A DNA stretch of 51,366 nt, the filler included, from Jimgerdemannia flammicorona (lineage: Eukaryota), in the NCBI GenBank assembly GCA_003990765.1. It is 2 parts of 2 records of this genome, joined end to end, with 100 filler letters (N's around TTAATTAATTAA, not from the genome) between each part and the next. Parts side by side here need not be neighbours in the genome. Positions count along the whole stretch, not along the records: positions 1 to 25,634 come from RBNJ01000808.1; 1 more part is not named here. One strand, given 5' to 3'. Below are positions 4,929 through 37,231 of this stretch, piece after piece. Both the position numbers and the translations under genes were made by a program. The first letter of the stretch is position 1. Each line of letters opens with the position of its first letter. Below the pieces are notes generated by a model, which saw nothing but the letters and a program-made list of their open reading frames with translations, made no database searches and had not been told where the DNA came from.

Positions 4929-4984
<56 letters not shown>

Positions 4985-5164
4985 GTTCCTTGGACTCTGC
5001 CATTTATTACCAGTCTATTAATAAGTTTACAGTATATTCTCCCACTACCCGATCCCCATAGAGGGGCCACTTCCCACACCCTCACAAACAAAGACCACTC
5101 TCTCACCCGCGACTCCAACTCTCCCCCTACTCTGTCTATAGATTTTCTCCACCAAATGATGCCT

Positions 5165-8100
5165 TCAACTACCCTGCAACCCCCAGCCAAGCCACCAGTC
5201 TGTCAAGGTATCTTCCATAAGGCTATGCCACCACAGCAGCCTGACCTCTAAGCCTAGTCTCCTCCCATCCTCAAAAACAAATAACCAGTGACTGGCCAGC
5301 CCCACCCAAATGGCCAAAGCCCAGCCTAACATAAGCCATTCCTTTCCCACCCCCCCCACCAATCTATTCCTCAAATCCTCCCACTGCATCTGCATGCCAG
5401 CTCCCCTACACACTACCCTCAAATGATCCCCAATGGTCTGCCAAAAGGTACTAAGTACCTCACACTCTCCTAGCCAATGTTCAGGCATCTGCATATATCC
5501 CCCTTTCTGCCCTACATTATAACACTCTTCACAGTCAAAGCAACCTTCCTTGATAAGATGACCAGAGCGGAAGTTGAGCATGACATTCTGCCTCAGCATG
5601 CGCCACCAGGCCAACCAGTACTTTGGTGGCATCCACCTCCTCACCTCAGCACTCTAGGCCCAAATGCTACACCAGTCCCACTCCTCACCGATTCCTACTC
5701 CTTGCTAACTGCTAGGCCACAGATCTTGGCCTAGTCTCCATTGGTATTCGATCTCATCACTAATGTTAAACTCAATTAAGGGAATGCCACCCAGCAACAC
5801 TTGGTCCCATCTCCACATTACCAGGTCTCAAGCTGTCTCCCCTTCATTCCCCTGCCACCGAATTCCAATGCAATGTACCCCCTCCACCACCCCCCACCAG
5901 AAGCCTTTATATTGCAATTGTTCAGTACTCCAAAGGCCAACAAATGCTAGGAGGTTGCTAGTCGAACCTCTAGGTGAGGACCTCATCTCCCAGACTTTCT
6001 ACAATAGGAGGACCCAACCTCCCCCTCTCAACTCCACTGCTCTCTTCAGCCACCATGCTCTCAAGTAGTGCAGCCTCTTAGGAAAGTCAACCAGCCCAAG
6101 TCTACCACTTGCCACCAGTAAGGACAAGACCTTCCAGCTGATCTGACTCTGTCTTCCAGCCCAGATCCACCCTTTGGCCAGCTTCATCAATCACTTCACC
6201 ACCCAAGCTGGGAAGTCCAGATGATAGGCCAGATACCACAACTTTGGCAGCCAATAAACATTCAGAATTGAAACACGCCCTGCCAGAGACAATTGGCGAC
6301 CCCCCCAACTCTGCAGGGCCTCCTCCCAGATTCCAACCTGCTGTTTCCACCAAAGTCTGGGTAAAACTGACCCATATACCAACAGATAAATACCCAAGTA
6401 CCGCACTGCCCCACCAGCAGGGACGATGGTTCCAATAATCTCTCCTCCCACCAGACTATTGCCTAACACTATTATTTCACACTTATACCAATTAAGCTTA
6501 GCCCCCGAGTTCTTCTCATACCACTCCACTGTTTTCTTGAGCTTCTCAACATCTATAATGGATCCCAGGCCAACCACCATGTCATTTGCAAAGGCCCTAC
6601 TTTCCACCCAATGCCAAAGATAGAGAGCCCCACTATCTTCTTCCTGATTCTATCCATAAAGGGCTCCAGGGAAAGAGCATACAAAATGGGTCCCCCTGGG
6701 GCACCCCCCTATCCAGGGGAAATGCTACCCCTCTGTGTCCATTACACATAAGCGCAGCCCTACTTCCTTCCAGTAGGCTGACCATGGCTGACCTGAACTG
6801 GTGCAGGACCCCAATCCTATTTAATACTTTCACCAGCCAGACTCGCCGCACTCAGTTATAAGCCTTCTCCTGGTCCAAAAAGACCAGTCGCCCATCCAGT
6901 CCACTGACTCACACCCCTTCAATAACTCCATAAACCCAGGCTGTGCTATCCCTAATGAGCCAGCCTCCCACAAAGCCCCTCTGCTCATCACCCATGACTT
7001 GCTGGGCCACCTTTTGCAGCCTTGTGACCACCACCTTGGTAACCAACTTTCTGTCCATATCCAATAACATAATTGGCCTCCAGTTCTTCCAGTCCTCTCA
7101 CCTTCCTTTGTTCTTATAAAGTAACATCACCAGCCCCAGATCCTATTCCCCCACCCATCTCTTCATCTATAGAATCCAATCATACAGTGCCATCATCTCA
7201 CCCAGTACTCCTGGAACTCCCACCATCTTCTTCTAGAAGTCCCAGGGCAGACCATCCTCCCCAGGCACTATACCCAGTGTTGTTGCAGCAAGAACCTGGT
7301 GGATCTCCTCCTCTTGTACTGGCAGCACTAAGTCACCCAGCCCCTCTACTTGTGTAGGGTGCCAATCCTCCAACACTTGGTCAATGGCTTCTGCATCTGC
7401 CCCCCCCTCCTCCTCACTCCACAATCTACTCCAACACTCCTTTAACGATCCAAGAATGTCTTGTATACCATGCATCAATATACCATCAGTGTTAAGCACC
7501 CCCTCCCACCTTTGTTGCACCCTTCTCACCTGAAGGGCTCTTGTGAGAAACTTTGAGGGTCTCTCCCCTTCCTCCAACCCCTGCCAATGAAGCTGCACCA
7601 CCAGACCTTGTATCCTTGCCTCTTCCTCTTTCTACAACACCTGTATAGTTCCTCAATCTCCATTTTTGCTCTTATCAATCTCCAATCCTCCTCTCCCTCC
7701 AATGTCACCAGTCTTGCCCAGTCCTCCAAGAGTCTAGACAGTCTACTAGAAGCCCATCGCACCCATCACCTCCTCTATTTCCCAGCCTCCTTACCAGCCT
7801 CACTCTAGTAGGTCCTGGCCATCTCCTTCATCCTCATCTACCAAATACCAACTGGGGCACCTTTCTGCCTCCAGCACTCTACTCTCAGTTGAATGTCTTC
7901 AGCCCACTCATCCTACCAGATCTTATCATCTAGTAAGGAGGAATTGAGACACCAATGTCCAGGCCCATCTCCACTCCCCCCAAAATGTCTCTGCTCTAAA
8001 AGCCCCCAATGATCCGACCAAGGACACCATTCCACCTCCAGTGACTTCCAAACATCCAAGCCCCAGCAGCTGGCTATTAGAATCTAATCAATCCTTGTCC

Positions 8101-8689
8101 CCAGGCCCCCAGCCCAGTGTGTGTATACCCTCCTATCCCCCCAACACTCTCTACCCACATCCATCAGAGCACTCAATCTTTCCACTTCCTCCCATGCTAC
8201 CAGTCCTCCACTCTGACCCTCAGCTCCCTGTTCTCCATCAGTTCTATCCATCAACACATTCTGGACCATATTGAAGTCCCCACTGAGCATATCCACCCCA
8301 ACCTCCACAAGAATTCCACTCTTCTGTAGGCCCTTCACCCAATCCACACACTCACCCCATACCGCAGAGCAGTAACAGGAGCCCACCATGACTGGCTCCC
8401 AACCTGTGCATATCCACTCTCCCCAGACCAATCTATCCCTCTAGCTCTGCATATCTCTTATCTCTTCTCTGTCTTTCTGTACCAGAATCCCAACCTTGCC
8501 TTTCCAAACTGCCTCACCTCCCCATTCCTTTGTCCATTCCAGTCTATCCAAATTATCCTTACACCTGACATCCTACAAGAAGAAGAGATCAGCCTCCAAT
8601 CTCTTCAGTTAAGTAAAAATGTTCCTATATCAATAAGCGCCCCATAACCCATTCACATTCAAAGAAAAAATATTGGTTGTACTATTCAT
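5165..8689 (-). pseudogene. LINE B ORF2 (APE-RT-C-terminal zinc finger), degenerate
   Basis: Start MNSTTNIF..NVNGL at 8689. Motifs GDFN, TRID, WSDH, PGEDGLPWDF, GVPQGDP, FANDMVV (FADD decayed), LSLAGRVSILN, CEEC..MPEHWLGEC. Confidence 0.92.
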
Positions 8690-8714
8690 AATGAAGAATG
8701 GTGTGTTATCAAGT

Positions 8715-9397
8715 CCTTCCCTACTGCTCCATGTTTATCTCCTCCTGCACCAAGTCCAAATTATGTTCTGCAGTCACCACCTCCTCTTCAGCCCTCTGAG
8801 CCTCCAATCCAGCCAACAGCTCATTCATCTCCCCATCTGCCTTCTCCTCAAATTCCTCTCGGTACTCCAGGCAGACTTCCTACCAGAGCTGCAATCTATG
8901 ATGCTTGGTCTAGCAGTATTCAGCCCTCTCTCTAGCGACTCCCACCAGCTCTGCCTCCTGCTCCTTATCCACCTCATAGCCTTCCTCCTTCAGATATACT
9001 ATAAGAATTTCCACCTTCAATGCCATCACCACCCCATCCCCCTGCAGGATCTGCATCTAATACTCATTGCTCATTACTCTCAAATCCACCTCTCCCAGCT
9101 CCTTGGCCATCAGGTTGTTCATCATCCTATACATCCAAAGTAGGTTCCTCACCTCCTTTCCTCCAGGGGTCACTGGCCTCTCACCATCCAGCATTGTAGT
9201 ATCAGCTCTAGTACTCGCAGCCTCATCCCACTTCTCTGGGACATCCACCAGTTTCTCCTCACTGGCCGCCACCACTTGTCCCCCTTTTGCTACCTCTGGA
9301 ACTCCAAATTGTACTCACTGTACTCCCCACATTGGCATATCCTCCACTACCCTGCTTTAGGAAGCTGGGCCTTACCTGATAAGGGGAGTAGGGTAGG
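8715..9397 (-). pseudogene. LINE B ORF1, C-terminal part
   Basis: Acidic segment EEKLVDVPEKWDE..MAKELGEVDLRV is homologous to LINE D ORF1 (36.6-37.2 kb). The reading frame rejoins 18934+ once the Gypsy is removed. Confidence 0.8.
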
Positions 9398-10910
9398 TAT
9401 AAGAGGGTTACTTTTTAGAGGAACCATTATGTAGTTCTGGAAGGGTTTTCTGGAAGTTCTGGATATTCTGGAAGACTCTTTTCTTATAGTCAAGATCAAT
9501 TTCGTATGGAGTATATCCTCTATGCTTATTGATTTCAAGATCAGGTTGACATCTCAACCAAAGTCCTTTTTCAGACTAGTTCTGGATGTTCAGGATTTTC
9601 CATATTTCAGGAAGTTCAAGAAACTAAGACCAGCTTAGTTGAATCAGCGTATCACTGCAGACAATACCTAATTAGGAAACTTCATGATGGAGTTAGGAGT
9701 GGGACCTAATGGGGAGTGGATTTACTTAAGAGTGATTTGTGGGTTATTAAATAGGTTTATTCGCTATTTATAATATTGCTATACTAAGAGTAGTTATGTA
9801 AAGGGATATTGTGGGGAAGTGCTCAGGAGTTGTGTTCAGATGGTTCAAGTGTTCAAGTCTGTTTAAGTCTGAGATTCTGAGGTCTGGGGGAGGGAGTATT
9901 TATACTAGTGAGGGGCTATCTGGACTATGCTAAATATGGATGTAGCACTTAGTGCCTTGCTGAGTTAAAATGCAGTCATGTCATACAAGAGTGGTCTGAT
10001 ATGTCAAGAGATCATCTGACTGCTGAGTCAGTTCACAATTATATCATATAAGGCTAATATAACTATACTATGACTGCTAAGCTATTTATAGATTTAGATG
10101 CTGTCTGGTTAGTCTTTGATGACATCACTATTAATGACATCATCTCTGGCAAAGTCTGAGCAGTTTTCTGACTTCTGACATTATCAGTTTCAAGGTGTTG
10201 TCACTTCTACCTCTTGCAAGATTAAGGCTATCCTTGGTGGCGGTAGTTGTACAAGAATAACAGGTCTTGGTTCTCTTTTTTTTTTGGCTTGCTGGCATAT
10301 TTATGAGGACTGGTCATCCTTGTCTAGGGCAAGGACTCCCAATGTCGTGGCTGGGGGTTTGAACCTCTCAGAAATGATATTTTCTGTAATCTGAGGCAAT
10401 TTCTAATAGTAATATCTGTCACATGGATGGCTTGAGATTGGTTTCGACGATGTTGGCTTTCTTGAGTTCAGATGAAGCATCTGTCACTCTCCAACAGAGG
10501 TGATACAGATAGAGCAAATAAAGTTATTCAAATGTGTTTTGCTTCTGCTAAGTAATGAGGTCTTGTATAGTCGCAGTATATCTTGGTCTTGAGTTTGATA
10601 AGTGCAGTTCATGAACTCTTAATAGATGAGATAGGGTCCTTCTTGTCTCAGTTTGAGTTTGGTACTTTCGGTTTCCTTTTTGTAATAGTACAATACACTA
10701 GACTAGTTATAGAGGTTTAGAGTCAGTTTTGTGGTTATAGTACTTCTTCTGATATTCTTATATCTTAGCAGTAGGTTCTCATGTTTGCTGGCATATTTTG
10801 TGTAACCATATGATCTCTTCAGTAACTTGTTTTGTAGTCTCGCATGTGGTTTCCAAATTGGTTCTGAGGATGATATGTGATTTTGGTGGCTTAGAGGTTG
10901 TGCGCTTACA
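9398..10910 (-). repeat. Gypsy-1 3' LTR (1513 bp)
   Basis: Aligns end to end with 17422-18933. The + strand starts TATAAGAGGG (TG>TA decayed) and ends CTTACA. Confidence 0.95.
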
Positions 10911-10924
10911 ACTCTCTCCTTCTT
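10911..10924 (-). promoter_or_regulatory. Polypurine tract of Gypsy-1
   Basis: The minus strand reads AAGAAGGAGAGAGT immediately before the 3' LTR. Confidence 0.85.
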
Positions 10925-11359
10925 AGCTTTCAATATCCTCATTGGGGCCTTCTAATTTTATTCTAGTATTAGTATACCATTTGGGAGGTCAAAAGTCTGA
11001 TGAAGTCCATTTTTCTCAGAAAGTGGCATACTCATAGTATAGTTGCCTAATATATTGGATTCATACGTTAAAGGGTCATGTGTTCAATACCATGCACTAG
11101 AAGTGATTCTGACATCATTCACTGCTGGAGAATTTCCTCTAAGGAATCTTCTTAAATATCTACACCTTGTTTCCCACCAGTGGTACAGGGAGAATAGGCT
11201 TGCTTTCAGTTTTGCTAATTTTCCAGAGAGTCAGTGTTCTATTATCTTAACTTGCTGAGTTCTTGATTTTATTCATGATAATTATAATATTTGGGAGGGT
11301 AATATATGATATATACTGATAGGTGTTGGATATTCGGTTTTAGTTGTTCAAGGAATCAT

Positions 11360-11520
11360 ATTCCTGAACTAAGTCAGTAGCATTCTAGAGATTGGTCTTG
11401 GGTTCTCATGTTGCATCATGGATTAGATAACCTTTCCATTTGACAAAGTACTCAGGGCAATCCTTGTGGCCACGTTTGTTGAGGATTTATTCAACTTCAT
11501 ATTCTTCTTGGTCATTAATA
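11360..11520 (-). pseudogene. Chromodomain at the integrase C-terminus (Gypsy-1)
   Basis: Manual translation EEYEVE*ILNKRGHKDCPEYFVKWKGYLIHDAT*EPKTNL matches the chromodomain consensus YEVExI..YLVKWKGY..TWEP. Confidence 0.9.
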
Positions 11521-14500
11521 ATGATAGGTATAGGTGGTTCAGTGGTCTGGTTTGGGAATAGCTCGTCATCATTTTCATTATATTGCTTGAGATGTTGAAC
11601 ATTAAAGACTGGATAGACCTTAATGGTGTCTGGTAGCACTAATTTATAGGAGGTCAGAGAGACTTGTGCAATGACTTCAAATGGTCCAATGAACTTACTG
11701 TTCAGCTTTATAGATAGTCTGTGCTTGAGGTTGTCAACTCGGTATCCTCGGATGTCCAGTAGAACTTTTTCTCCAATATCAAAGGTTTCTTCTCGGCAGT
11801 GTTGGTTAACATACTGTGACTGTTGTTCTTGAGCACAATAAATTCTTGATTGCGATCTGGCTTAAGTTTCGTATTTGCAGTAGGAATTCTTCAACAGCTT
11901 CGACTGTAGAGGGTTCCTCAGTGGTTTGGATAAGTGTCAGAGGGGTGTTTGGGTTTTGTCCTATATTGGTGAAGAATGGGGTCATTCCAAGAGAGGCTTG
12001 CTTGCTATTGTTATAGGCAAACTTGACTGCAGTGAGGTGTTCATGCCAATCATCTTGTCTGTAGGAAACATAGTTCTTTAGCATTTGTTCTAGAGTTCGG
12101 TTCATTCTTTCAGTTTGGCCATCAGTTTCAAGATGAAAGGCTGTGGATAGTGCGAGTTTCATTCCAAGGTATACATGGAGGGCTTTCTAAAAATGGCTGG
12201 TGAATTTCAGGTCTCGGTCACTAATAATGATCTTAGGAAGACCATAATAGTAGAAGATGTTGTCAAACAAGAGTGTAGCTATGTCTGGTGCTGTTGCGGT
12301 GGTAGTAGTTGGTACAAAGTGGGCTTGTTTGCTGAGATAGTCCACAAAGACAACAATTGCATCTTTCCTATTCTTGGTTCAGAGTAGTTGTACAATGAAG
12401 TCTATAGAGATTTGTTCCCAATTAGCAGATAGTACTGGAATTGGGTAGAGTAGACCAGGTTTTGCTAGTGTTGAGGACTTGTTCCATTGGCAGACATCAC
12501 AGGAAGTGATATGTATAGGTCTTTAGCTGATCTGTCATGCAAGGCCAAAAGAAGTTTCAGGAGATAACTTCATAGCATTTATCAAATCCTAAATTTCTGG
12601 CTATAGGGGCATTATGATATTCAAATAGGATAGTCCTTCGGAGGTCTCAGTTGTTTGGAACATACAATCTATCCTTATAGTAGATAGCATTGTCCTTCAG
12701 TTGGATTGGTTGTACTAGGTATGCTTGTCAGTATCATCATCATTCAGAATTTCTCAGAGTACTTGAGCTTCCTTATTATCAGCACATACTGTGATAATTT
12801 GTTCCATGATAGAGTTTGTAACCAGGGTGAGAGTTTGGATAACTTCTTTGATTGGTGGTCTGGAGATTGCATTGGCAATAATATTTTCCTTATCTGGGCG
12901 ATACTGGATTTCATAGTCAAAGTTGGTGAGGACTTTCATCTATCTGGCTTGCTTTCAAGAAAGGGTAGCCTGGGTCTTGATGTTGACTAATGACTTGTGG
13001 TCAGTCAATATGGTGAAGTGTGCTTCTTCTAAGTATGGTCACCATTTGATCAGAGTGTCTATGATAGCTAGTATTTCCTTTTCATAGATTGCATAGTTGA
13101 TTTTAGCATCATTGAACTTGCAAGAGTAATAGGCCACAGAGTGTCCTTCTTATATGAGCACTGCTCCAAGGGCTAGATCAGAGGCATCAGTAGTAACTTC
13201 ATATGGCAGGGCAGGGTTTTCCACTTGAAGTACTGAAGTGGTTACCAAGGCATCCTTCAGTACTTGAAAGGCAGTATCTTGCTCAGGTCTCCAATTTACA
13301 AGATTGTTGAAGTCTTTCTCTTGTTTCATGGTCCAGGGCTGTTCTTCTTTCTTGTTGTGCTTGGTCATTTGGGTAAGAGCAGTAGTGATTTTGGTAAAGT
13401 TGGCAATAAATTGCCTATAATAGTTTGCTAATCTCAGGAATAACTGGAGGTCTTTCAGCTTCTTGGGTCTGGGCCAATCTTTGATTGCAGAGATTTTGCT
13501 GGAGTCCACTTTGATTCTATTTAGTGTAACAATGTATCCAAGGAATTGAATTTCTTTCAGGAGAAATTCACATTTGCTGAGTTTTGCAAAGAGTTGGTTT
13601 TTTTGGAGTTTCAGTAGTACTAGTTCAAGGTGTTCAAGATGTTCCTCCAGGGTTTTGCTGAAGACTAGGATGTCGTCAATATAGACAATAATGAATTTGT
13701 CCAGGTATGGGTGCAGGATGGTGTTCATTAGTATCTGAAAGGTTGCAGGAGCATTAGTTAAGCCAAAGGGTATAACCAGGAACTTGAAGTATCTATAGTG
13801 GGTTCAGAAGGCTGTCTTGTAAATGTCTTCTTCTTTCATGGTAATTTGCCAGTAACTATTTCAAAGGTCAAAAGAGCTCATGAACTGTGGGTTGGTAAGC
13901 CTATCAAATATTTCATCGATTCTGTGCAGTGGGCAACAGTTCTTGATGGTCTGTTCATTGAGGTCACAATAATCAATATACATTTATAGGTCTCCTCCTT
14001 TCTTTACAACAAAGAGGACTGGTGCATTATAGGGTGATACACTGGGTCTGATGAATCCTTGTTCTAGGAGTTTGTCGATTTCTTTCTTGAGTACATTGAT
14101 TTCTCTTGGCGATATGTGGTAGATTGATTTGAAGGCTGGCTTGGCATCTGGGATGGTCTTGATTGCATGGTCTACTGCTCGTTTAGGAGGTAGGCCTTTT
14201 GGAAGCTTCTTTGGAAATATGTCTCGGAATTTCTAGAGTAGTGGTCTGACATAGCTGTCAACTTTGGAAAAGTCTTCTTCAGAGTTCTCAGGTTCTCTTT
14301 TGGATGGGCAGATGGAGATAGCAAAGAGAGGGTATTTCTTGGCCAATTTCTTGAGCTGTAGCTTGTTGATGTGGGTGATCTTTAGTCCAGGGTCACTAGA
14401 ACTGAGTGGATCCTTTTCACCTTGCAGTTTGAAGTTGTGGCATCCTTTCTTGATAGTTAGAGAATGGTTTACCCAATCGATCATGGGGTTTTCTTGTTTT

Positions 14501-14800
14501 AACCATGGAGTTCCAAGGATGATTTCATTGTCTGGAAGTGGTATGATCTGGAGGGTAATATGTACTCAGTAGTCACCAATTCGGAAGGGTAGATTGTGGA
14601 CTTCTTTACTAATAACATGGGAGATTCCATCAGCTGTGGCAACTGCTTGAGTTTGTTGTACTGGAGAGGTGAAGACCTTGAGTCTGTTGGCTGTTTCTTC
14701 ATTGATGAAGTTGCCTGAGGCACCACTGTTTATCATAATCTTGACAGGTGCTCAGTTGACAAAAGCTTGAAGTATAAGCAGTTTGTCTGATCCAATAGTG
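11520..14800 (-). pseudogene. Gypsy-1 pol: protease, RT, RNase H, integrase
   Basis: PR IMINSGASGNF (DSG decayed, ~14700-14740). RT VYIDDILVFS (~13680). RH TTDASD..LGAVL and ENIIANAISR. INT TAFHLETDGQTERMN, with a GPF motif near 11690. Confidence 0.95.
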
Positions 14801-14999
14801 GTGATTTCGGTTATAGGGGCTTTCCTTCTGTTGGTTCTTCTTTGAGCTAGTTTATTGACACAAGAGAAGCAATCATCAATCATTCAAGAAGAGTACATTC
14901 CAATACTATGGGGGCATTGGCCACTTGGTATATATCCATCTTCGATTTTCTTATAGAATTGTTCCTCTTTGTTCATAGTAGGTTGGGCTGAGGTCTTGT

Positions 15000-15411
15000 T
15001 TGATGAGCCAAATCCTTTGGATCCTTGGATGGTGGGCAGTAGTTCAGGGACTTCCTTGACTGTCAGAGTTGACTTGATTTTCTCAAATAGAATCTGGGCA
15101 ATGCAGAAACCAATGGGGATCTTGAAGAGTGTCCAACTGTGGTTTCGGATGAGGACAATAATTTCACCTGTGTAATCTTCGTCAATGACTCCTCCTTCTA
15201 CTGAGAGTCCTTTCAATGCTAGGCTGCTGCAACAGCATATTCTTCCAACATGTCCTTTAGGGATTTGGATACTGATTCCTGTATAGACTTGCTTAATTTC
15301 TCGGTTGGAAACTGTAGTTTCTTCAGCTACATACAGGTCATATCTAGCTGCCTTTTGACTTCCTTTGGTTGGGGCCTTGGCAGTTTGTCTTAACTTGACA
15401 AAGTTCAGTAT
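15000..15411 (-). pseudogene. dut: Trimeric dUTPase domain within the Gypsy-1 polyprotein
   Basis: Translation gives all five motifs: AARYDL (I), ICCCSSLA (II, RSG decayed), GGVIDEDYTGEI (III), FCIAQI (IV), QGSKGFGSS (V). It is in frame with the upstream zinc knuckle and the downstream protease. Confidence 0.93.
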
Positions 15412-16480
15412 TCTGGTGGTCAGGTTATTGAGGTGGTGCAGAGTAGTAACAGTTGCTCATGTTGCTGTTCAGGGTTTTTGGTTAGGACAGGCACTGGCCA
15501 TATGTCCTGTCTTTTGGCAATAGAAGCATGCTCCGCTTCTTTGAAGTTCATTTCTTTCTCCTTCAGTGAGTTTCTTGAAGGTACTCAGCTAGGTGGGTTC
15601 ATGATTTCTGGGTGTCCAAGAGGTGGATGTGGAGGGAGCTTGGGATGCTTCATGGGTTCTTCTTTCTTGGTCCAAGTCTTTTCCTTATTGTTGAATTGTC
15701 TTCAGGGCAGAATTGGTCCAGCTGTTAGGATTCGCTTGACCATAGTCTTGATTCTTGCTAGGCACCATTGTTGGTGATTACAACCAACTGGGCAGCCTTG
15801 TTCTTGGATTTTTCTAGTAAGCCATTCAGGTAGGGCATCAAATAAATGGTCTGCTCTTATTCCATTTCGTGTTTCGTCATTGGCAATATATCCTAGGCCA
15901 ACAGTGTTCAGGAGTGACTCGAGTTTTGTACAGAAGGTTTCAAATTCTTCTTTGCCATATATATCGAATTTGAGATTATGAAGTTTGACTCAAGATTTGG
16001 CAATCATGGTTTTGCTGCAGTATTGAGCAATCATGAGTTATTTGAGTCCAGGGGCTGCAGGATGGGCTCCATATCCTGGGGCATTGTTTGCTGCATTTTG
16101 GGCAACCACTGCAGGTCGGGTATCCCATGTGAGGGGTTTTTTAGGAAGAGTTTGCCACTATTCTTTGGCAAGTCCTCAGAAGAATGTAACAACTCAGCAG
16201 ACATAGGCCATAGTGGTAGCAAAGAGTTGTTCCAGAGTATGGTCTTAATTGTTTGTCAGAAAGTGATCAGCAACTTGCTCATTGGTCTATTGATTGGCTT
16301 CGAAGTTGGTATCAACTACACTAATGAAGCTTTGGACTTCTTGTGCAGTACCATTGAAGGTAGGTAGGCTCAGATTTTTGATAGGTTGGGTCTGTTTGGC
16401 TAAGGCAGTAATGGTTGCTGCCATTATTGCTACCTGAGCTGTAAGGTCTAGAATCTGTTAGTTTACCATGTTGTTTACTA
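15412..16480 (-). pseudogene. Gypsy-1 gag with CCHC zinc knuckle
   Basis: CFYCQKTGHMASAC at 15487-15528, preceded by a decayed gag-like frame. The N-terminal boundary is uncertain and may extend to ~17.3 kb. Confidence 0.75.
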
Positions 16481-17406
16481 GAGGCAGTTAGACTGCTGGT
16501 AGTGGTGTTACTGGTACTACTTGTGATACTAGTGCAGAGTGTGATGGGGTTCTTTGGGTCTGTGTAAGTTGCTGGAGTAATAGTTGTAGGTCTGGAGTAA
16601 GGGCTCGATAGATAGCTGTTTGTTGCTGTGTAGGTGTGTTCTGTCCTGATGGAGGTATATCTCCTTCGGTGGTATATCTGGGATCGAATTCACTGAGATA
16701 CTCCTCCTTTTCTTCGGTTTGGTCCCTATATAATTAGGTTTGCTCAGCATCAAAGTAGATAGAATCAGTTGTATATCTGATTTTGGATGGACTTAATTCA
16801 AAGTCAAGTTCTGGTTCAGTATTGGTTTTAGGTTCAGGTAGGGCTGTAGCTGGGCCTGCTTCAGGTTCAGGGTCAGAAGGGTTTCTCTCACTTCTTCCTT
16901 AAGAATATGGCAGGTCTTACTATTCTGGAATCAGTAGTATAATGTGGTCTTAGTCCTGGTGCGGTGAAAGTCGATAGAGTTGAGCCACTTGGCTACAGAG
17001 GCTTGGGCTTTGTGAGGAACTAAGGCTAGAAAGACTGCTGATGGTTGTCCTAGGTTACTTGGATTTAAGGAGCTGACAAAACTCTTGTTGAGAAGAGTAA
17101 AGAAGGCTTCAATAAGACCTTCTTCATCTTGACTTACTGGGTGTAGAGTAGGGAGTTCGGTGAATAGGGTTTCACCTATTTGCTGATTTAACTAGAGTAT
17201 TTCTTTCTTTAAATGAAGTTTGTCCCACTTGTTATAGGTGTGGAGGTCAAATTGTCCTTGTACATCAGGTTCAATTCTCTCCAGATTGTCAGATGGTTCA
17301 GGATAAATTCCAGTTCAGAGGTTGGGCTTTATACCAACTTGTAGGAATTCACAGAGGGGTTTGTAGTGGGGTGAGGAAGCATCTTGAAGCAGAATTGGAT
17401 TGTAAA

Positions 17407-17418
17407 CCACTGCTACCA
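17407..17418 (-). promoter_or_regulatory. Primer-binding site of Gypsy-1, initiator-tRNA-Met-like
   Basis: TGGTAGCAGTGG lies 3 nt inside the 5' LTR end. TGGTAGC is the usual complement of the eukaryotic tRNAiMet 3' end. Confidence 0.8.
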
Positions 17419-17421
17419 AGT

Positions 17422-18933
17422 TGTAAGAGGGTTGCTTTTTAGGGTAACTGTTACGTAGTTCTGGAAGGGTTTTCTGGAAGTTCTGGATATTCTGGAAGAC
17501 TGTTTTCTTATGGTCAAGATCAATTTCATATAGAGTACATCCTCTATGCTTATTGATTTCAAGATCAGGTTGATATCTCAACTAAAGTCCTTTTTCAGAC
17601 TTGTTCTGGATGTTCAGGATTTTTCATATTTTAGGAAGTTCAAGAAACTAAGACCAGCTTAGTTGAATTGGTGTATCGCTGCAGACAATATCTAATTAGG
17701 AAACTTCGTGATAAGGTTAGGAGTGGGATCTAATGAGGAGCAGATTTACTTAAGAGTAGTTTGTAGGTTATTAAATAGGTTTATTCGCTATTCATAATAT
17801 TACTATACTAGGAGTAGTTGTGTAAAGGGATATTATGGAGAAGTGCTCAGGAGTTGTGTTTGAATGATTCAAGTATTCAAGTCTGTTCAAGTCTGAGATT
17901 CTGAGGTCTGGAGGAGGGGATATTTATACTAGTGAGGGGCTATCTGGACTATGCTAAATATGGATGTAGCACTTAGTGCCTTGCTGAGTCAGAATACAGT
18001 CACATCATACAAGAGTGGTCTGATATGTCAAGAGATCATCTGACTGCTGAGTCAGTTCACAGTTACATCATATAAGGCTAATCTAACTATACTATGACTG
18101 CTAAGCTATTTATAGATTTAGATGCTGTCTGGTTAGTCTTTGATGATATCACTATTGATGACATTATCTCTGGCAAAGTCTGAGCAGTTTTCTGACTTCT
18201 GACATCATCAGTTTTAAGGTGTCATTACTTCTACCTCTTGCAAGATTAAGGCTGTCCTTGGTGCAGGGGTTATACAAGAATAACAGGTCTTGGTTTTCTT
18301 TTTTTTTTGGCCTGCTGGTGTATTTGCAAGGACTGGCCATCCTTGTCTAGGGCAAGGGCTCCCAATGTCATGGCTGGGGGTTCGAACCTCTCGGAAATAA
18401 TATTTTCTATAATCTGAGGCAATTTCTAGTAGTAATATCTGTCATATGGATGGCTTGAGATTGGTTTTGATGATGTTGGCTTTCTTGAGTTCAGATGAAG
18501 CATCCGTCACTTTCCAACAGAGGTGACACAGATAGAGCGAACAGAGTTATTCAAATGTGTTTTGCTTCTGCTAAGTAATGAGGTCTTCTATAGTTGCAGT
18601 GTATCTTGGTCTTGAGTTTGATAAGTGCAGTTCATGAACTCTTGATGGATGAGATAGGGTCCTTTTTGTCTTGGTTTAAGTTTGGTACTTTTGGTTTCCT
18701 TTTTGTAATAGTACAGTATACCAAATTAGTTATAGAGGTTTAGAGTCGGTCTTGTAGTTATAGTACTTCTTCTGGTATTCTTGTATCTTGGTAGTAGGTT
18801 CTCATATTTGCTGGTGTATTTTGTGTAACCAGATAATCTCTTCAGTAACTTGTTTTGTAGTCTCACATATGGTTTCCAAATTGGTTCTGAGGATGACATG
18901 TGATTTTGGTGGCTTAGAGGTTGTACACTTACA
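17422..18933 (-). repeat. Gypsy-1 5' LTR (1512 bp)
   Basis: TGTAAG...CTTACA termini, direct repeat of 9398-10910, adjacent to the PBS. Confidence 0.95.
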
Positions 18934-20285
18934 GTAGAGGAGTCCTCCCATATCTCCTCCCAAATCTCAAGTGAACTATCAGCATATGGATCATTGCCAG
19001 TCGCCTCCCTGTTCTTGCCAGTCCTCTTCTCAGCACTCCTACTACCCTCGCCTGCCCAGATACTTGCTTTGGCCCCCTCTGTGTCCACCATTCTACTCAT
19101 ATCCTTTGGAGACCTGCCTGCCATCTTCACCAGCAGTTCCTTCTGTCTCTTACATCCCTGATCTCATTCTCACTACTCCTTGTTCACTCGAATCTACCTC
19201 CCATCCACCACCTCCAAGTGCGTCACCTCCTCAAAGGCCTTCCAAGCCTTCGCCTGCCACTCCACTGTACTACTCAACTCCTTCAGTACTTCCAATAAGT
19301 CCTCTTCCTCCTCCTCACTCCCCTTCACCCTTGTCACCTTGTACAAGATTGCCCCCCAGACCATCTCCAAAGGCCAGTTCCTTGCCTTCCCAGTGGCCTC
19401 TTTCCCTGCCAACTGAATCCTCACATCCACATCCCCAGTCCTGAGCAAGGTCCCCTCCCAGACTCTGAATCTAATATCCACCACCTCTCCATACTCTGCC
19501 ATGACCTCCTCAACTCTCCTTCTTGTCTCCACCACCATCACTGTGGGCACCCCTTTCATCAGTAATTGGACCACCCTGGGATTCCATTTCAGGCAGCATG
19601 CCATCAGAACACATACCTCCCCAACTATCAATCCAACCTTCAGCACTTCCTCCAAAGGCTCAGCCTCCTCAAAGCCCACCTCCACTCCCTCCAGTCCCTT
19701 CAAAAACTTTACAGATGCTGCTCCAGCCACCTGCTTGGCAATCAGCCCCAGTACTATTTTCACCATCACTACTAGGCCCCGGAAGTACAGTGTCACCACG
19801 AATGCCAAGATCGATTTCTTGAGTAACGGTGTCACCACCAGGCCTGTTACACCATCTGTCAAATTTCCTTATCTTCCAAGCCCCAGTCACTCAGCCATGC
19901 CATCCACAGTTACATCTGGATTTTTTTTCAGATTAGCAGTCCTGTCTTCATCAGCCATCATGCCCCCCCCAGCCACTACACCTCCAGCCCTACCACCCTT
20001 TCTACCAAGGGCTACTCCCCCTTGTACTGCTGCCTTCTCTGTTTCCTTGTCTTTTCTCAGCCAACCCTCCAGCCCCGATGTCTGCCTTCTCTCCTTTACC
20101 ATCTCTGCAAAGCTTGCCCTCCCAGATCCCTGTCCTCTACTACCGCCTCCTCACCTTCCGTGTCTACCTGCCAGCAGCCCCCTCATATCACCTCCCAGGC
20201 CAGGGCCTCTCCCTACCTACTGCCAGTCGAATGTGCTTGGGCCACTCTGTTCAGTACACACCTCAGTTTGCCAGTCAGTCACCAT
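18934..20285 (-). pseudogene. LINE B ORF1, N-terminal part (Gly/Arg-rich N-terminus + RRM-like domain)
   Basis: ORFs 19887-20102, 19194-19862 and 18934-19130. WNPRVVQLLMKGVP..EYGEVVDIRFRVWEGT..RTGDVDVRI is shared with the ORF1s of LINEs A and D. Confidence 0.85.
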
Positions 20286-20385
20286 GTCACTAGTCTCTTT
20301 TCTCTAAAAACAATATTGTAGTTGCTTTCCAAAGGTCATGTAACCCAAGTGGTACTGGAGAGGGAGCTGCCTCCACAAGTTCCTC

Positions 20386-21556
20386 AAGTACTGCCTGATA
20401 TCAGTCATCAGCAGTTATCACCAGAGGTCTAGAGGTGGCAGGCCTCAGGGTCCTACTCAGCTCTCTCTATCTACTAACATATCAGAGATCATGTCCACCA
20501 GATCATCCTTCTCAGCATCCTTCTCCAGCCACACCACCTCACCTGCCTCTGGATATTCCCAATGAATATTTGCTGCTTCTGCTATGTGAACATCCTCCAA
20601 CTGGATCTCAGACACTACCTCAGCAATATCCTCAAAACCCCCTTCACCTACCTCCTCCTTATCAGCCCACTTCCCCTTCACCAGTGTATGAGCTGAGTTC
20701 TCCACATCTACTAGTTGTGAAAAGGACACCTCAGCCATCTCTATCTTCTCCATCTGACTCTTGGCTATCTCTGCCCTCACTTCTTCTTCTATTTTGGTAC
20801 CCTGGAGGACCATCTGCAGGCACTCTCAGTTTGTCCTTTACTATCTCTTCCTCCTTCCATCTGTTGCAATCCAGATCCAGTCCTTGGTGAACTCCTCCTA
20901 TCTTCTCTTTTGCAGTTCCTTTGCAGCCTCTCTCTCCTCCAGAGTAAGTAATAATTCCTCCTCCTCCTGTTCAGATCCTTTCCTTCTCCATACCTTTATA
21001 CTCTTGTTCTTCAACACAAATCACCTCTAGCCAGTCCCTTCCTAGCCCCATGGCCTCCTTGCCCTCCAGCCTCACTATAATCTCACAGTTGCTATTCCTC
21101 AGCTTCATTCCCTCCCAAAACATAAATCTGAAGTCAACCATCTCACCAAAGCCTACCAGTGCCTCTGCCACTATCTCCTTAGTCTCCTGTCTCTCAAGAG
21201 TCAGCAGCCCTTCAACCACCAGATGTATAGCACATGGATTCCACCTCAGATACCTCATTATTCCAACCTTGATGCTCTTGACTACCAACTCTTTCTCCAG
21301 GGCCTTCATCATCTCCTCCTCCTCTATAAAGCCAATCTCCACTATCTCTGCTAATGGAATAAACTTCAGAGACTCTGCACCAGCAATCTCCTCACCCACC
21401 AGCCACAAAACCTCTCTGGCAGACAAACCCAGTCTCAGAAAATTCGCTGAGATCACCTATATTGATACCAATTTGTGGAAAAAAGGATACACCACTAGTT
21501 CTCCAAAGCCAGCTACCATCATTGCCTTCCCCTTACCTCCTGAGACACTAAGCATT
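20386..21556 (-). mobile_element. LINE A, 5' part (ORF1), truncated at ~21556
   Basis: Resumes right after the second TSD copy. ORF 20971-21456 (WNPCAIHLVVEGL..FGEMVDFRFMFWEGM) is an ORF1 paralogue of LINEs B and D. Confidence 0.85.
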
Positions 21557-22460
21557 TTTCAGTAATTAATTCTTATAATGTTATCCCTCAAACTAAGGAG
21601 TGACCTGGCTATTAACTTAATGATGCAGTTCTTTGCAGAGTATCTATTGTTCAATACTAATGGTTCACAAAAATAAGACTAATAACTGGAATAATCAATT
21701 AATAGCAGATGGTACAGAGATGAACAATATCTTCAAAAATCAGATGATAGTCTATATAGTGGTTTGTTTGTTATTTTTTTTAGGTGGTAGTCCATATAGC
21801 AATTTATTCATCTTCTTCAAAATTAGGTAGCAATGGTCTATACAGTGGTCTATATGTTGTTTTCTTTGGGCAGTAGTCCATACAGCAGTCTGTTTACATA
21901 GCAGTTTATTCAGTATTTTTTAGTAATTAATTCTTATAATGTTGTCCCTCAAACTAAGGAGTGACCTGGCTATTAACTCAATGATATAGTCCTTTATAGA
22001 GCATCTATTGTTCAATACCAATAGTTCACAGAAATGAGACTGACAACTGAAATAACTAATTAACAGCAGATGGTGCAGAGATGAACAATGTCTTCAAAAA
22101 TCAGATGATGGTCTGTATAGCAGTTTGTTCATCTTCTTTAAAATTGAGTAGCAATTGTCTATATAGTAGCCTATATATTGTTTTCTTTGGATATCTATAT
22201 AGCAGTTCATTTGTATGGTAGTTTATTTGGTATATTCCATGATTAATTCTTGTAATATTGTCTCTTGAACTAAGGAGTGATCTGGTTATTAACTCAATAA
22301 TACAGTTCTTGCAGAGTATCTATTATTTAATACTGATAGTTCACAGAAATGAGACTGACAACCAGAACAACTAATTAACAGCAGATGGTATAGAGATGAA
22401 TACTATATATAATAATCTATACAGTGATCTATATATCTTCAAAATTGAGTAGTAATAGTT
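21556..22460. repeat. Tandem array of ~3 diverged 320-360-bp units, probably the internal leader of a decayed LTR element
   Basis: The unit anchor ATTAATTCTT(A/G)TAAT..AACTAAGGAGTGA(C/T)CTGG recurs near 21564, 21925 and 22243. Lies directly inside the PBS/LTR at 22510-22928. Confidence 0.85.
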
Positions 22461-22521
22461 GTTCATTTTTTAGCTTAAAAGTGAGGATTCATTTTGAATT
22501 ACCAACCAATAGACACCAAGT

Positions 22522-22928
22522 TGTAATGTAGTAGACATGGGTCTTAGTAAGTTGGTAGAATTCTGGATTTCATATAAAAGGGGAGAGAAAGGATATATAA
22601 AGAAGACTTTTTTGACTGAGCTGAACTGACTGAGGTTTATTCACTCTAAAATACTGAGTTATTTATACAGATTTGTGTACTAATTCTACTACTAAATATA
22701 AGGCTAAGTAATAAGTTATTTTATGTAAAATTTCAAGTAGAATTCCATCTATATCTCAGATAGAATCTCATATGAAATCCTATCTAAAGTTTATAAACAT
22801 AACAATAGTTTCACTAATAATGTTTTAGATATAAAGATAATTTCTACATTATAATAAAACAGGAAATTAGATTCAGATACCATAATCAAATGTCTATTTT
22901 CTATTTCTATTTCATACTATATATCATA
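22522..22928 (-). repeat. LTR of a third LTR family (5' LTR with adjacent PBS-like TGGTGTCTATTGG)
   Basis: The + strand reads ACACCA-AGT-TGTAATG, the same geometry as the Gypsy-1 PBS/LTR. The minus strand has TATAAATAACTCAG..GAATAAACCTCAG (TATA + polyA signal). Homologous to 24433-24620 and 28088-28526. Confidence 0.7.
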
Positions 22929-23225
22929 TTATATAAGATTTTAAAAAAAGATCTGAAAATAAAAAAAAAGTCAAAAGAGTAGTTCTTAGTAAAGATAATA
23001 AATAAGATTTTATAATATTTTAAAGATTTTTATAATTAGCTAAAATAAGATACTTAGTACTGAGAAAAGATAGAAAAAGGCTAGAGAAAAGATATAAAAA
23101 TATACTATAACTAATCCAAGAGATTAAATATTATATATATATATAATTTAAACTTATACTGTTAGTTTTTAAAATAAACTAATAATAGAGTTGAATATTT
23201 TATTTTGATAAAACTATCTCTTAAA

Positions 23226-23510
23226 TAGTACTCAGAATAAATTGAATTAAATTAAATTTATCTCCAATTTAATTCAAAGTCTAATTCAAATCTAATTTTT
23301 TAAAATTTAATAACTTGACCAAAATATATCCAAATTTAATGAATTTTAGCTTATTAAATATACCTTATGATGGAAAATCTAATATAATATAGAATATTAA
23401 ATTTGTATATATTTTTATTAAGTTATTATATTTTGAATTTGAGATAAATATTTTAAATCAAATTAGACCCCAATTTAATTCAATTTGAATAACTTTTAAT
23501 TTAATTTAAT
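23226..23510 (+). mobile_element. Second, 3'-truncated copy of the hAT-like MITE
   Basis: TAGTACTCAGAATAAATTGAATT.. aligns with 148-480 with an internal deletion. The right TIR was not found. Confidence 0.8.
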
Positions 23511-24260
23511 TATAAAAAAACATTAAATTTATAAAAAAAAAAAACAAATTTATATATTATATTTATAATATAAAAGATATAATATTATCAAAATAATTTT
23601 GGAGATTAATAAAAAGTTATTAAGATTACTAATTTCTACTTTATATATTATTAATAATAAAGAATATTCTTTTAAATAATTAATAGATATAAAGTAGAAT
23701 ATATTGTTTAAATATAAAAATATTATATTTATTTAATATTTTTAAATACTTATATTATTTATAATAATGAGTTTATTAGTTTAATAGTTTTTTTTTAATA
23801 TTATAAAAGATCTGATAATCTCTTATATTTTAAATATAATTTCTTTAATATCCTATAGAAACTAATTAAGATTATATATTTAGATTAATATACCAGTATA
23901 TTATAGATATATTTAAAGAGAAAAAAAAATATAATTTTATTTATTTTTAAAGATATTTCTTTAAGATTTTAATTTAATTATTAAATAAACTATTTTAGTA
24001 TATAATAGTACTGATTTTATAGACTATCTCAGACTATAATATTAAATATTAATACATAGTTAATTCTAATATAATTTAGCTTTATAATATTAATAAAATT
24101 ATAGACTAATTTAACTTAATATTATTGATCTATTTTTAGACTAAAACTATAGTAAGATTAGTGATATTATTAATTAAACTAATATAGAAACTAGTATGTA
24201 TAATTACTATAATATTACTAATATCATAAACTGAAATTAGTATAAAATTATTATAATCTC

Positions 24261-24298
<38 letters not shown>

Positions 24299-24432
24299 AG
24301 ACTTCTGTATTTATTACTAAACCAATCTATACTATTAAAATATATAACAATTAAATCTCCTATCTAATATCTCCTAAGAGTCTCTCTCCCCCCTATCTTT
24401 TACTCTCTCATATTGAAATACTATCTGACTAT

Positions 24433-24620
24433 TGTGATATATGGTATGAAATAGAAACAGGAAATAGACATTTGATCATGGTATCTGAATCTGATTTCTA
24501 ATTTAGTATAATTCTTTACTGTGGACACTGCATCTAAAATATTATCAGTGAAACTCTTATTACTTTTATGAATTTCAGATAGGATTTCACATAAGATTCT
24601 ACCTGAGAATTTCACTATGT
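24433..24620 (+). repeat. Truncated LTR fragment, inverted relative to 22755-22928
   Basis: TGTGATATATGGTATGAAATAGAAACAGGAAATAGACATTTGATC is the reverse complement of the 22880-22928 end. Similarity runs ~180 bp. Confidence 0.75.
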
Positions 24621-25634
24621 TATACTATTAATAATTGCAACCCTCTTATCACTTTTCTTGTAGACCCTCTCTACCAGGTAGTGATAGCAACCCCCTTGAG
24701 ACTCCACCCACACTACCAATCAAATATAATGTCTACCACCAATCTCTGTTATTAATTCTTTTAGTATATAATCTTATTGTTGATATAAATTTGATAATAT
24801 TATATTTAGTGATATCATCATTATGATATTAGAGTATAATTTTATTATAGAAAGATAATTTTAAATAATATTTATATTATCTTAATTAAAATATATTAGT
24901 GATATATTTAAAGTCAAAGAAGATAGATTAAATACTAGCAAATAATAATTTTGGATCAAAAATATATTAGAAAAAAATCTTTTCTAATAATTAATATTAC
25001 TTCAATTTAAATTATATAAAGCCCAGATGCTGCTTTATTATTGGTTAGAATTTGGGTAAATTTTATGCATTTTTAGGCCACAATATATTTTTTAAAAAAA
25101 ATAATAACACATTGGAAAGGTTTTGTCCCTCACTGTATTTACAGCACCTACTTGCTCTCGATAATGCCGATGGCTGGATTCCCGACGCTCTTGATGTCGA
25201 GCCCGCTTGAGAGGATGGCACTCTGAGAGAATATTGTCACCATGCCCTTCTTGAATTCGTCAGTTACATTCTGGGCAGTTCATGGATAGACCAAGTCTCT
25301 TCCCTCAGGACGTTGTAGAATGTGGTAGCATCATGTCTGAAAAAAACAACCAAAAATATCTGGCATAATGGATGATAGAAGGTAGATATAAGAGCTTGGT
25401 AACTGTCCCGATGGTGTGGACAGCATGCATGGGCTACTGAGAGCTTCGTTCCAAGAATACAACATGCGGATATCAAGTCCTAATTATCCTGCCATCTTCC
25501 AATACGTGGAAGCGTTCTCAGCAATACTGTGCACACCATTGGGACGTGTAAAACAGAAAATGTTTCTATCTTCTATACCAAAAAGTAGGTGGAGATGGTG
25601 AATGACAAAGTGGTCTTTCATTGGGAGGGGGTGG

Positions 25635-25734
25635 NNNNNNNNNNNNNNNNNNNNNNNNNNNNNNNNNNNNNNNNNNNNTTAATTAATTAANNNNNNNNNN
25701 NNNNNNNNNNNNNNNNNNNNNNNNNNNNNNNNNN
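25635..25734. other. Assembly gap spacer (44 N + TTAATTAATTAA + 44 N)
   Basis: Exactly 100 bp with an all-frame stop linker; artificial contig join. Confidence 0.97.
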
Positions 25735-35764: not shown

Positions 35765-35949
35765 AATGAGAAAATATGTACAGCTCCTTTCTCCACTACC
35801 ATACCAGTCACAAGGTTGGTGGGCAACCTTCCAAGTCCTTTTTCCCTTATTCTTCCCCTACTATCTCAGGTTGGTTTGCTGTGCCTATATAGGTATAGTG
35901 AGAGAGAGACAATGGTGATATGTTGCCCTTTTATCAGTATTGGATCGTG

Positions 35950-37200: not shown

Positions 37201-37231
37201 ATTGGGGTCTCTATTGCAACATTTCTTCAAT

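Follow-up and report, generated by a model that had tools for sequence, protein, structure and literature searches.

A dead chromovirus with a dUTPase domain in frame between the nucleocapsid knuckle and the protease, and its relatives of the same layout

Retroelements in the window

The window, which is the whole stretch of DNA that was analysed (51,366 nucleotides), contained on its minus strand an LTR element at 9398-18933 (element 1), in the order LTR, gag, CCHC, dUTPase, Cys/His linker, protease (PR), reverse transcriptase (RT), RNase H, integrase (IN), chromodomain, LTR. The 5′ LTR (17422-18933) starts with TG, ends with CA and forms a direct repeat with 9400-10910; the 3′ LTR, of which the ends and flanks were read, occupies 9398-10910. 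The two LTRs, each about 1.5 kb long, were 91.7% identical over 1511 bp. The putative target-site duplication (18934-18938 and 9393-9397) matched in four of its five bases, with a C/T transition as the mismatch. A tract resembling a primer binding site (PBS) was found 3 nt downstream of the 5′ LTR (17407-17418), and a purine-rich, PPT-like tract directly upstream of the 3′ LTR (10912-10922). The structural hallmarks of a chromovirus (LTRs with TG and CA ends, target-site duplication, PBS-like and PPT-like tracts) were thus all present, the duplication with its one mismatch. We take the PBS-like tract to resemble the 3′ end of the initiator tRNA-Met. No tRNA genes were found within the window, hence there were none to match against it. 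A possible integrase C-terminal remnant within the LTRs gave only a very weak SH3_Tf2-1 match in one LTR (E=0.053) and nothing in the other. A second copy of element 1 was not found within the window.

The minus-strand frame from 15798 to 11802, whose conceptual product is labelled P0001, has 1332 codons and 26 in-frame stops, and there are no frameshifts inside it. Knuckle, dUTPase, PR, RT, RNase H and IN all lie in this one frame. The Gag body (15720-16463) is in another frame, separated from that of the knuckle by one frameshift between about 15570 and 15702. It had no Pfam match, and was recognised by its similarity to the gag of protein P0004 (35% identity over 248 aa, E=5e-44). The CCHC zinc knuckle of the nucleocapsid (15481-15531, P0001 residues 90-106) matched PF00098 zf-CCHC with E=3.9e-4. 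The dUTPase (15001-15381, residues 140-266) matched PF00692 with E=2.2e-29 and is full length, spanning profile positions 3-128/129 with 102 bits against a cut-off of 22 bits. Between the dUTPase and PR is a linker (14839-14979) with a Cys-x-His...Cys-x2-Cys pattern, which no Pfam model matches; the pattern is common to protein P0190, in a colinear BLASTP HSP. PR (14443-14793, residues 336-452) matched RVP_2 (E=2.6e-9) and gag-asp_proteas (E=2e-9), and the alignments have Asn at its active-site Asp position, where P0190 and P0279 have Asp. From the knuckle to the end of PR the frame is broken by five stops (codons 110, 114, 305, 349 and 411), all of them TGA. The single frame through these three domains and its restriction to TGA stops had both been proposed in an earlier note on this DNA, and both were confirmed.

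Downstream of PR are RT (13528-13968; RVT_1, E=1.1e-29) and RNase H (12919-13293; RT_RNaseH_2, E=1.8e-26; RT_RNaseH, E=1.7e-25). The integrase core (12154-12414) gave an rve match of E=1.4e-3, under the curated cut-off, and was colinear with the integrases of P0190 and P0279. The Pfam coordinates on P0001 gave the Gypsy-type order PR-RT-RNase H-IN and not the Copia order. A second frameshift, near 11800-11900, puts the C-terminal SH3 domain of Tf2-1 type (11580-11774; PF24626 SH3_Tf2-1, E=1.2e-14) and the chromodomain (11355-11501; PF00385, E=1.1e-11) in another frame. The chromodomain region shared 48% identity with the P0190 C-terminus across 171 aa, and lies 444 bp from the 3′ LTR. The integrase thus ends in a chromodomain, as the earlier note had stated, once this frameshift is passed, and the profile matches to PF00692 and PF00385 bear out both domains that it had named.

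A second Gypsy element, unrelated to element 1, was found on the minus strand at about 41700-47400 (element 2). Its dUTPase (44559-44927; PF00692, E=3.6e-19, P0006 residues 825-947) is located after PR (46302-46571, residues 277-366, a weak match with E=0.003) and before RT. The RVT_1 and RNase H matches are at 42805-43860 and rve is at 42125-42460, all on the minus strand. The dUTPases of the two elements were 31.7% identical. A third retroelement copy, also on the minus strand (49855-51337), is truncated and belongs to the family of element 2; it was 79.7% identical to 43094-44593 and comprises RT and the last dUTPase codons.

Decay of element 1

This copy of element 1 is dead: it carries the 26 in-frame stops, the two frameshifts and four damaged positions in the dUTPase motifs. 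The four substitutions, judged against alignments to solved enzymes and to the intact relatives P0190 and P0279, are Gly to Arg in motif 1, Arg to Cys in motif 2, Arg/Lys to Cys in motif 4 and Arg to Gln in motif 5, according to the five-motif numbering as we assume it. P0190 and P0279 keep the usual residues at all four, and the Asp residues of motif 3 are retained in element 1. The presence of all five motifs, as claimed earlier, therefore holds for the outline of the domain and fails at four conserved positions.

The decay is by CpG deamination. Transitions make up 115 of the 124 differences between the LTRs, and 9 of 10 and 8 of 9 CpG sites of the LTR pair show a transition difference. The observed/expected CpG ratio is 0.17 in element 1 and 1.05 in a neighbouring gene, and the dUTPase domain has decayed at CpG as much as the remaining element. 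Stops of element 1 sit on Arg, Gln and Trp columns; in the RT-integrase region, the TGA and TAA stops at codons 605, 646, 665, 920 and 948 coincide with alignment positions at which most or all relatives have Arg. An origin of the stops as CGA to TGA changes, suggested earlier, thus stands in general and for the RT-integrase region. It is not readable for the five TGAs between knuckle and PR, since the aligned columns there are variable. Classical RIP was weighed as the cause and set aside: it is the CpG sites that are saturated, and the (CpA+TpG)/(ApC+GpT) index stands high at 1.37, a pattern consistent with methyl-CpG deamination.

Relatives of element 1 and the origin of its dUTPase

When the decayed stretch of element 1 from knuckle to PR served as query, a word-indexed search detected only two proteins among 3270 candidates, and an exhaustive HMMER search with this stretch was hence made, yielding 19680 matches at E<=1e-3. 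Among the 141 of the best 150 of these matches that were scanned with Pfam, 11 had the dUTPase upstream of PR, 10 had PR upstream and three were Copia-type. In P0190 (1964 aa) the dUTPase (566-693) precedes PR (826-955), followed by RT, RNase H, IN and chromodomain. P0279 (1767 aa) has gag, CCHC (327-343), dUTPase (494-621) and PR (626-743), and continues onward to a chromodomain. P0004 has CCHC at 505-521, dUTPase at 872-998 and PR at 1021-1109, and P0170 and P0217 also have the dUTPase before PR. The intact relatives of element 1 have gag-pol in a single open frame. P0001 aligned with P0190 in one colinear HSP over residues 57-1325 (about 1270 residues, 38% identity). Judged from these sequences, the dUTPase-first layout is the trait of a lineage whose intact members are present in public data, and not of one copy or one genome. 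An insertion confined to one copy, a reading the earlier note had left room for, is contradicted by the same order in P0190, P0279, P0170, P0217 and P0004.

The highest RT identity to element 1 was found in P0169 (54% over 409 columns), and no close relative was found. P0169 possesses gag, PR and a chromodomain and lacks a dUTPase. Element 1 nests among RT matches most of which carry PF00385 (among the best 120 listed), whereas PF00692 is carried by only three of the same 120. The number of captures was approached with three trees. The 42-row RT tree was built under a mixture model with a quick search; it included 33 of the 120 listed RT matches and left out 87, the selection depending on the presence of gag and PR annotation. 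In this tree the four intact dUTPase-first elements cluster with an SH-aLRT of 90. Constraining element 1 to group with the other dUTPase-first elements gave the best tree found, 19.24 log-likelihood units above the free search (p-AU 0.756); a p-AU above 0.05 means that a single origin is allowed under the mixture model, and is not in itself proof of the clade. In the 124-row quick RT tree (LG+G4) element 1 is on a long branch away from P0170 and P0190, and the starred branches require the dUTPase-first label to have arisen two or more times. This tree was not relied on, since both the mixture-model tree and the AU test contradict it. With an RT branch length of 0.87-1.38, element 1 is a long and decayed branch, and its placement by RT is therefore unreliable. 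The dUTPase-domain tree (145 rows, 144 columns), from which ten rows were left out for their shortness (P0019, P0051, P0037, P0050, P0047, P0043, P0010, P0048, P0151 and P0038), had stars on 12 of its 142 inner branches and set element 1 apart from the other dUTPase-first rows. Its resolution is so poor that it identifies no donor and gives no count of captures.

Against solved structures, the dUTPase of element 1 matched cellular and poxvirus-type enzymes with E-values of about 1e-24 to 1e-22, lentiviral PDB entries with 1e-14 and 7e-12, and 2d4l with 1.3e-7. We take 2d4l to be the M-PMV enzyme, and the virus identities of the compared PDB entries are likewise our assumption. The solved cellular enzymes thus match far better than the retroviral ones, so that a capture independent of retroviruses, as proposed in the earlier note, is supported by this comparison.

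Shared descent, or exchange, with the betaretroviral pro-dUTPase would turn the common gene order into homology. The domain does have the same place, in frame and N-terminal to PR, in the betaretroviruses described in an excerpt of PMC2238898, and a feature search with P0190 500-960 listed HERV-K-like dUTPase-protease clusters with scores of 0.75-0.82, which are leads only. However, the E-values above rank the retroviral enzymes, 2d4l included, well behind the cellular and poxvirus-type ones, RT, integrase and chromodomain of element 1 are of chromovirus type, and the relatives have a single gag-pol frame in place of separate gag, pro and pol, all of which makes such descent very unlikely. The idea of a chimera confined to one copy, in which a fragment of a host dUTPase gene or an assembly artefact was placed in a family that normally does without the domain, draws on the rarity of PF00692 among the listed RT matches, on its absence from P0169, the protein most similar in RT, and on the single copy in the window. 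This is extremely improbable, given that the dUTPase is in frame with both neighbouring domains and shows the same degree of CpG decay as its surroundings in the element, that five independent intact or partial proteins have the same order, and that P0190 is colinear across knuckle, dUTPase, linker and PR.

Repeated captures at the same site, with element 1 separate from P0190, P0279, P0170 and P0217, would agree with the LG+G4 tree and its two or more origins, with the position of element 1 outside the dUTPase-first group in the dUTPase tree, and with an excerpt of PMC2864245, which suggests that fungal elements gained the domain independently and from more than one source. We consider this rather unlikely in view of the constrained single clade, which was the best tree under the mixture model, the unreliable placement of so long and decayed a branch, and the Cys/His linker common to element 1 and P0190. 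It is also conceivable that the lineage has kept the dUTPase fold for a structural or regulatory, non-catalytic role in Gag-Pol. Members of the lineage depart from solved enzymes at conserved positions: Thr replaces the Arg of motif 3 in P0190, P0004 and element 1, and P0004 also has Val for the Arg of motif 2. Thr at this motif 3 position occurs in active lentiviral dUTPases, however, and P0279, P0170 and P0217 match PF00692 with 3e-35, 4e-35 and 2e-35, while P0279 and P0190 hold the usual residues where element 1 has lost them; a non-catalytic role is accordingly quite improbable.

Element 1 is a complete, dead chromovirus (a Ty3/Gypsy LTR retrotransposon with a chromodomain), and its lineage encodes a dUTPase of trimeric type, in frame between knuckle and PR, that was most probably captured from a cellular source once and independently of retroviruses. 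The domain would have been acquired from a cellular gene, most likely a single time in this chromovirus lineage, and other Gypsy and Copia lineages, element 2 included, would have taken or placed a dUTPase elsewhere. By analogy with retroviral dUTPases, active members are expected to make the enzyme within Gag-Pol and to enclose it in the particle, where it would hydrolyse dUTP, so that reverse transcriptase would place less uracil in the cDNA. The benefit would be greatest in cells in which host dUTPase is scarce. On this analogy, the proposal of the earlier note that the enzyme would limit uracil incorporation is a sensible one. Much more tentatively, and with considerable doubt on our part, the dUTPase-first chromoviruses (element 1, P0190, P0279, P0170, P0217 and P0004) might form one clade, as such undescribed, with its home in early-diverging fungi (Mucoromycota), in which knuckle, dUTPase and a conserved Cys/His zinc module would be released jointly as a nucleic-acid-bound dUTPase. 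Were joint release true, the lineage would have converged in function, and not in gene order alone, with the NC-dUTPase fusion protein of betaretroviruses.

Comparison with known systems

The interpretation in the earlier note is partly supported, and its implied novelty did not survive comparison with the literature. An excerpt of PMC2864245 describes chromoviruses of the fungus Postia placenta (PosPlaTy3-3, -4 and -5) in which the dUTPase takes three different places, one of them the amino-terminus of Pol, and cites earlier dUTPase elements from Phanerochaete chrysosporium and Tuber (Tmt1). Like element 1, they belong to Ty3/Gypsy, carry a chromodomain and have a dUTPase added to Pol. PosPlaTy3-3, with its dUTPase at the Pol amino-terminus, has the position seen in element 1, a likeness of described layout, and the architecture was thus already catalogued in kind. 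The Postia placenta families described in that excerpt differ in dUTPase position within one genome, like elements 1 and 2 here. On lead-level evidence the host here looks like a member of Mucoromycota and not of Dikarya, and our literature search for dUTPase-bearing elements in Mucoromycota found no paper.

Fungal chromoviruses with a dUTPase have been in print since 2008-2010, and the layout is unusual but known. Taken alone, element 1 carries little weight, since it is a pseudogene and elements of its type were described in fungi more than 15 years ago. Two unrelated Gypsy families with the dUTPase on opposite sides of PR, in one 51-kb stretch, show how frequently the enzyme is picked up. 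Should the host belong to Mucoromycota, dUTPase-bearing elements would have a wider host range than was known. The intact relatives would be handy natural material for probing whether a retrotransposon dUTPase does protect cDNA from uracil.

The LTR elements Juno, Vesta and TelKA of bdelloid rotifers have a dUTPase in Pol between PR and RT, according to an excerpt of PMC5408684. This is the place found in element 2 and not in element 1, and the elements are described there without a chromodomain. Juno, in the same excerpt, has an extra zinc knuckle after the dUTPase, which recalls the Cys/His linker of element 1. The cellular trimeric dUTPases (3p48/3f4f, 1q5h/2hqu, 3lqw and 2okd) share the Pfam family of the element 1 domain along its full length (E=1e-24 to 1e-22). 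They are encoded by free-standing genes, whereas the domain of element 1 sits in a polyprotein and has lost four conserved motif residues.

Betaretroviruses such as MMTV, M-PMV and HERV-K encode their dUTPase within the pro frame, on the N-terminal side of PR. The betaretrovirus-like gene order named in the earlier note is borne out by the description in an excerpt of PMC2238898, and the likeness of the betaretroviral arrangement to fungal chromoviruses had already been noted in PMC2774666. Betaretroviruses and element 1 are alike in the order of knuckle, dUTPase and PR and in having the dUTPase in frame with PR. Unlike betaretroviruses, element 1 has no room for env in the 444 bp between chromodomain and 3′ LTR, has a chromodomain integrase and an RT nearest to those of chromoviruses, has relatives with one gag-pol frame and no separate gag, pro and pol joined by frameshifting, and possesses a dUTPase much nearer to cellular enzymes.

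Structure and decay of element 1

Element 1, the decayed minus-strand chromovirus that bears the dUTPase (9398-18933), is bounded by direct repeats at 9400-10910 and 17424-18933 (1511 bp, 91.7% identity). These LTRs start with TG and end with CA once extended by two bases, and are flanked by a 5-bp target-site duplication with four of the five bases alike, the odd one being a C/T transition. On the same strand, the 5′ LTR is followed after 3 nt by a PBS-like tract, and a purine-rich tract adjoins the 3′ LTR. At its start, on the U3 side (minus strand, 10550-10999 in one copy and 18570-19022 in the other), each LTR has a translation resembling the C-terminal SH3 of another Gypsy integrase, with a Pfam E-value of 0.053 in one copy and no match in the other.

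The main frame runs from 15798 to 11802 without a frameshift (1332 codons, 26 stops). In its translation (P0001) Pfam recovered, in order, zf-CCHC (residues 90-106), dUTPase (PF00692, residues 140-266), aspartic protease (336-452), RVT_1 (611-757), RNase H (836-960) and rve (1129-1215). The dUTPase match has E=2.2e-29 and covers profile positions 3-128 of 129. Beyond a frameshift near 11800-11900, an SH3_Tf2-1 domain is followed by a chromodomain (E=1.1e-11). The Gag body occupies a third frame, distinct from the knuckle-to-integrase and chromodomain frames. It had no Pfam match and was 35% identical over 248 residues (E=5e-44) to the gag part of P0004, a database protein with dUTPase before protease. 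The dUTPase-protease linker (14839-14979, minus strand) matched no Pfam model. It carries a Cys-x-His...x12...Cys-x2-Cys pattern, shared with the intact relative P0190, and could be an extra zinc module.

The earlier note had reported knuckle, dUTPase and protease in a single frame interrupted only by TGA, and an integrase ending in a chromodomain. Since the domain order and coordinates agree and each of the five stops from the knuckle to the protease end is TGA, this observation was correct. Its derivation of the stops from CGA is supported in general, because stops in conserved columns stand against Arg (five), Gln (one) or Trp (two) in most or all aligned relatives, but the five TGAs of this stretch sit in variable columns. 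A dUTPase with all five motifs was likewise only partly borne out. The PF00692 match is full-length, but this copy has lost four residues that solved enzymes and intact relatives keep (Gly>Arg, Arg>Cys, Arg/Lys>Cys and Arg>Gln).

Element 1 is a pseudogenised copy, with two frameshifts in addition to its 26 stops and with Asn where the protease active-site Asp is expected. Transitions made up 115 of the 124 LTR-LTR differences, and CpG sites differed at nine of ten and eight of nine positions, against 0.05-0.26 in other contexts. The CpG observed/expected ratio was 0.17 in element 1, 0.02 in element 2 (a second Gypsy element), 0.09-0.29 in non-LTR elements and 1.05 in a neighbouring Crinkler/AAA gene (32437-35187). 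The decay is point-mutational and fits methylated-CpG deamination in transposons. Classical RIP was considered as its cause and rejected, as the pattern is CpG-centred.

Other features of the window

Element 2, at about 41700-47400 on the minus strand, belongs to Gypsy as well but is unrelated to element 1. A zinc knuckle and a weak protease match are followed by a spacer of ~450 residues without a Pfam match, a dUTPase (E=3.6e-19), then RT/RNase H and lastly integrase; neither a chromodomain nor LTRs were found. The two dUTPases share 31.7% identity. A truncated copy of the same family (49855-51337) is 79.7% identical to 43094-44593, and retains just the last dUTPase codons before a poly(A/T) run at the window end (51366).

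Non-LTR (LINE-like) retroelements occur as minus-strand ORFs at 1000-9000 and 19000-21500 and on the plus strand at 35900-40770, with RVT_1 at 38483-39628 (E=4.9e-26) and a weak endonuclease match at 37388-37972. Copies are 65-74% alike. The GC skew of these elements is very strong, at about 0.4-0.58, with G abundant and C scarce on the coding strand. The Crinkler/AAA gene-like stretch (plus strand) encodes a Crinkler N-terminal domain (E=3.8e-18) as well as an AAA-type ATPase portion, and has a C-terminal ORF of 358 aa. It is not CpG-depleted, in contrast to all transposons of the window, and its closest eukaryotic Atlas clusters are Mucoromycota. The background is very AT-rich, with extreme blocks at 22000-25000 and 28000-32000 (12-27% GC per kb, CpG observed/expected 0.0-0.04). 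Taken with the Mucoromycota clusters, this composition hints tentatively at an early-diverging fungal host. Two stretches of N cover 25635-25678 and 25691-25734.

Relatives with dUTPase before the protease

The knuckle-to-protease stretch of element 1, searched exhaustively with HMMER, matched 19680 proteins at E<=1e-3, 15 of them at E<=1e-30. A Pfam scan covered 141 of the best 150. The dUTPase lay upstream of a retroviral-type protease in 11 of these (three also with CCHC or gag upstream) and downstream in 10; three were Copia-type polyproteins bearing a dUTPase, and 117 had no such pairing, being mostly single or tandem dUTPases. Many matches (P0012, P0013, P0015, P0017 and others) carry two or three tandem dUTPase domains per chain, an arrangement that has no bearing on element 1.

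Among the 120 best RT matches listed, three carried PF00692 (P0170, P0190, P0217), all in the order dUTPase, PR, RT, RNase H, IN. The 1964-residue polyprotein P0190 is open, has a terminal chromodomain and aligned to P0001 in a single colinear HSP (residues 57-1325, 38% identity) spanning the dUTPase-protease linker. A further search yielded P0279 (1767 residues; gag, CCHC, dUTPase, PR, onward to a chromodomain), together with the protease-first P0280 and ten Copia-type dUTPase proteins. The earlier note had allowed for a one-off insertion; the dUTPase-protease order recurs in P0190, P0279, P0170 and P0217, and by sequence comparison the layout is not a one-off.

The dUTPase-domain tree gave no resolved branching. 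A quick RT tree of 124 rows (LG+G4) placed element 1 on a long branch away from the other dUTPase-first rows. In a 42-row mixture-model quick RT tree the four intact dUTPase-first elements grouped together (SH-aLRT 90) and element 1 fell within a polytomy. Forcing all five into a clade scored 19.24 log-likelihood units above the free search (p-AU 0.756). On this basis one dUTPase-first chromovirus lineage including element 1 is the best-supported reading, though not a proven one.

Prior reports and origin of the dUTPase

The newness implied by the earlier note did not stand. PMC2864245 describes Postia placenta chromoviruses with dUTPase at the Pol amino-terminus (PosPlaTy3-3), at the carboxy-terminus (PosPlaTy3-4) and between PR and RT (PosPlaTy3-5). 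It cites earlier reports from Phanerochaete chrysosporium and Tuber melanosporum, suggests that the domain was acquired independently and offers a non-dividing-cell rationale. The likeness of betaretroviral to fungal chromovirus dUTPase has also been noted (PMC2774666). Elsewhere, dUTPase lies between PR and RT in rotifer LTR elements (PMC5408684), PF00692 is enriched along with retroviral proteases in Entomophthora muscae (PMC11105155), and a vertebrate metavirus carries dUTPase (PMC11011659). Literature searches on dUTPase with mycorrhizal/Mucoromycota terms found no report for Mucoromycota. The architecture is thus already catalogued for fungal chromoviruses, and element 1 is a decayed further member.

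The element 1 dUTPase matched solved cellular and poxvirus-type enzymes (E 1e-24 to 1e-22) far more strongly than lentiviral entries (1e-14 and 7e-12) or PDB entry 2d4l, the M-PMV enzyme (1.3e-7). The convergence proposed in the earlier note is sensible: capture independent of retroviruses, with convergent placement, is supported, because the dUTPase is closer to cellular/poxvirus-type enzymes and because element 1 differs from betaretroviruses in its chromoviral RT, integrase and chromodomain, in the single gag-pol frame of its relatives and in having no space for env.
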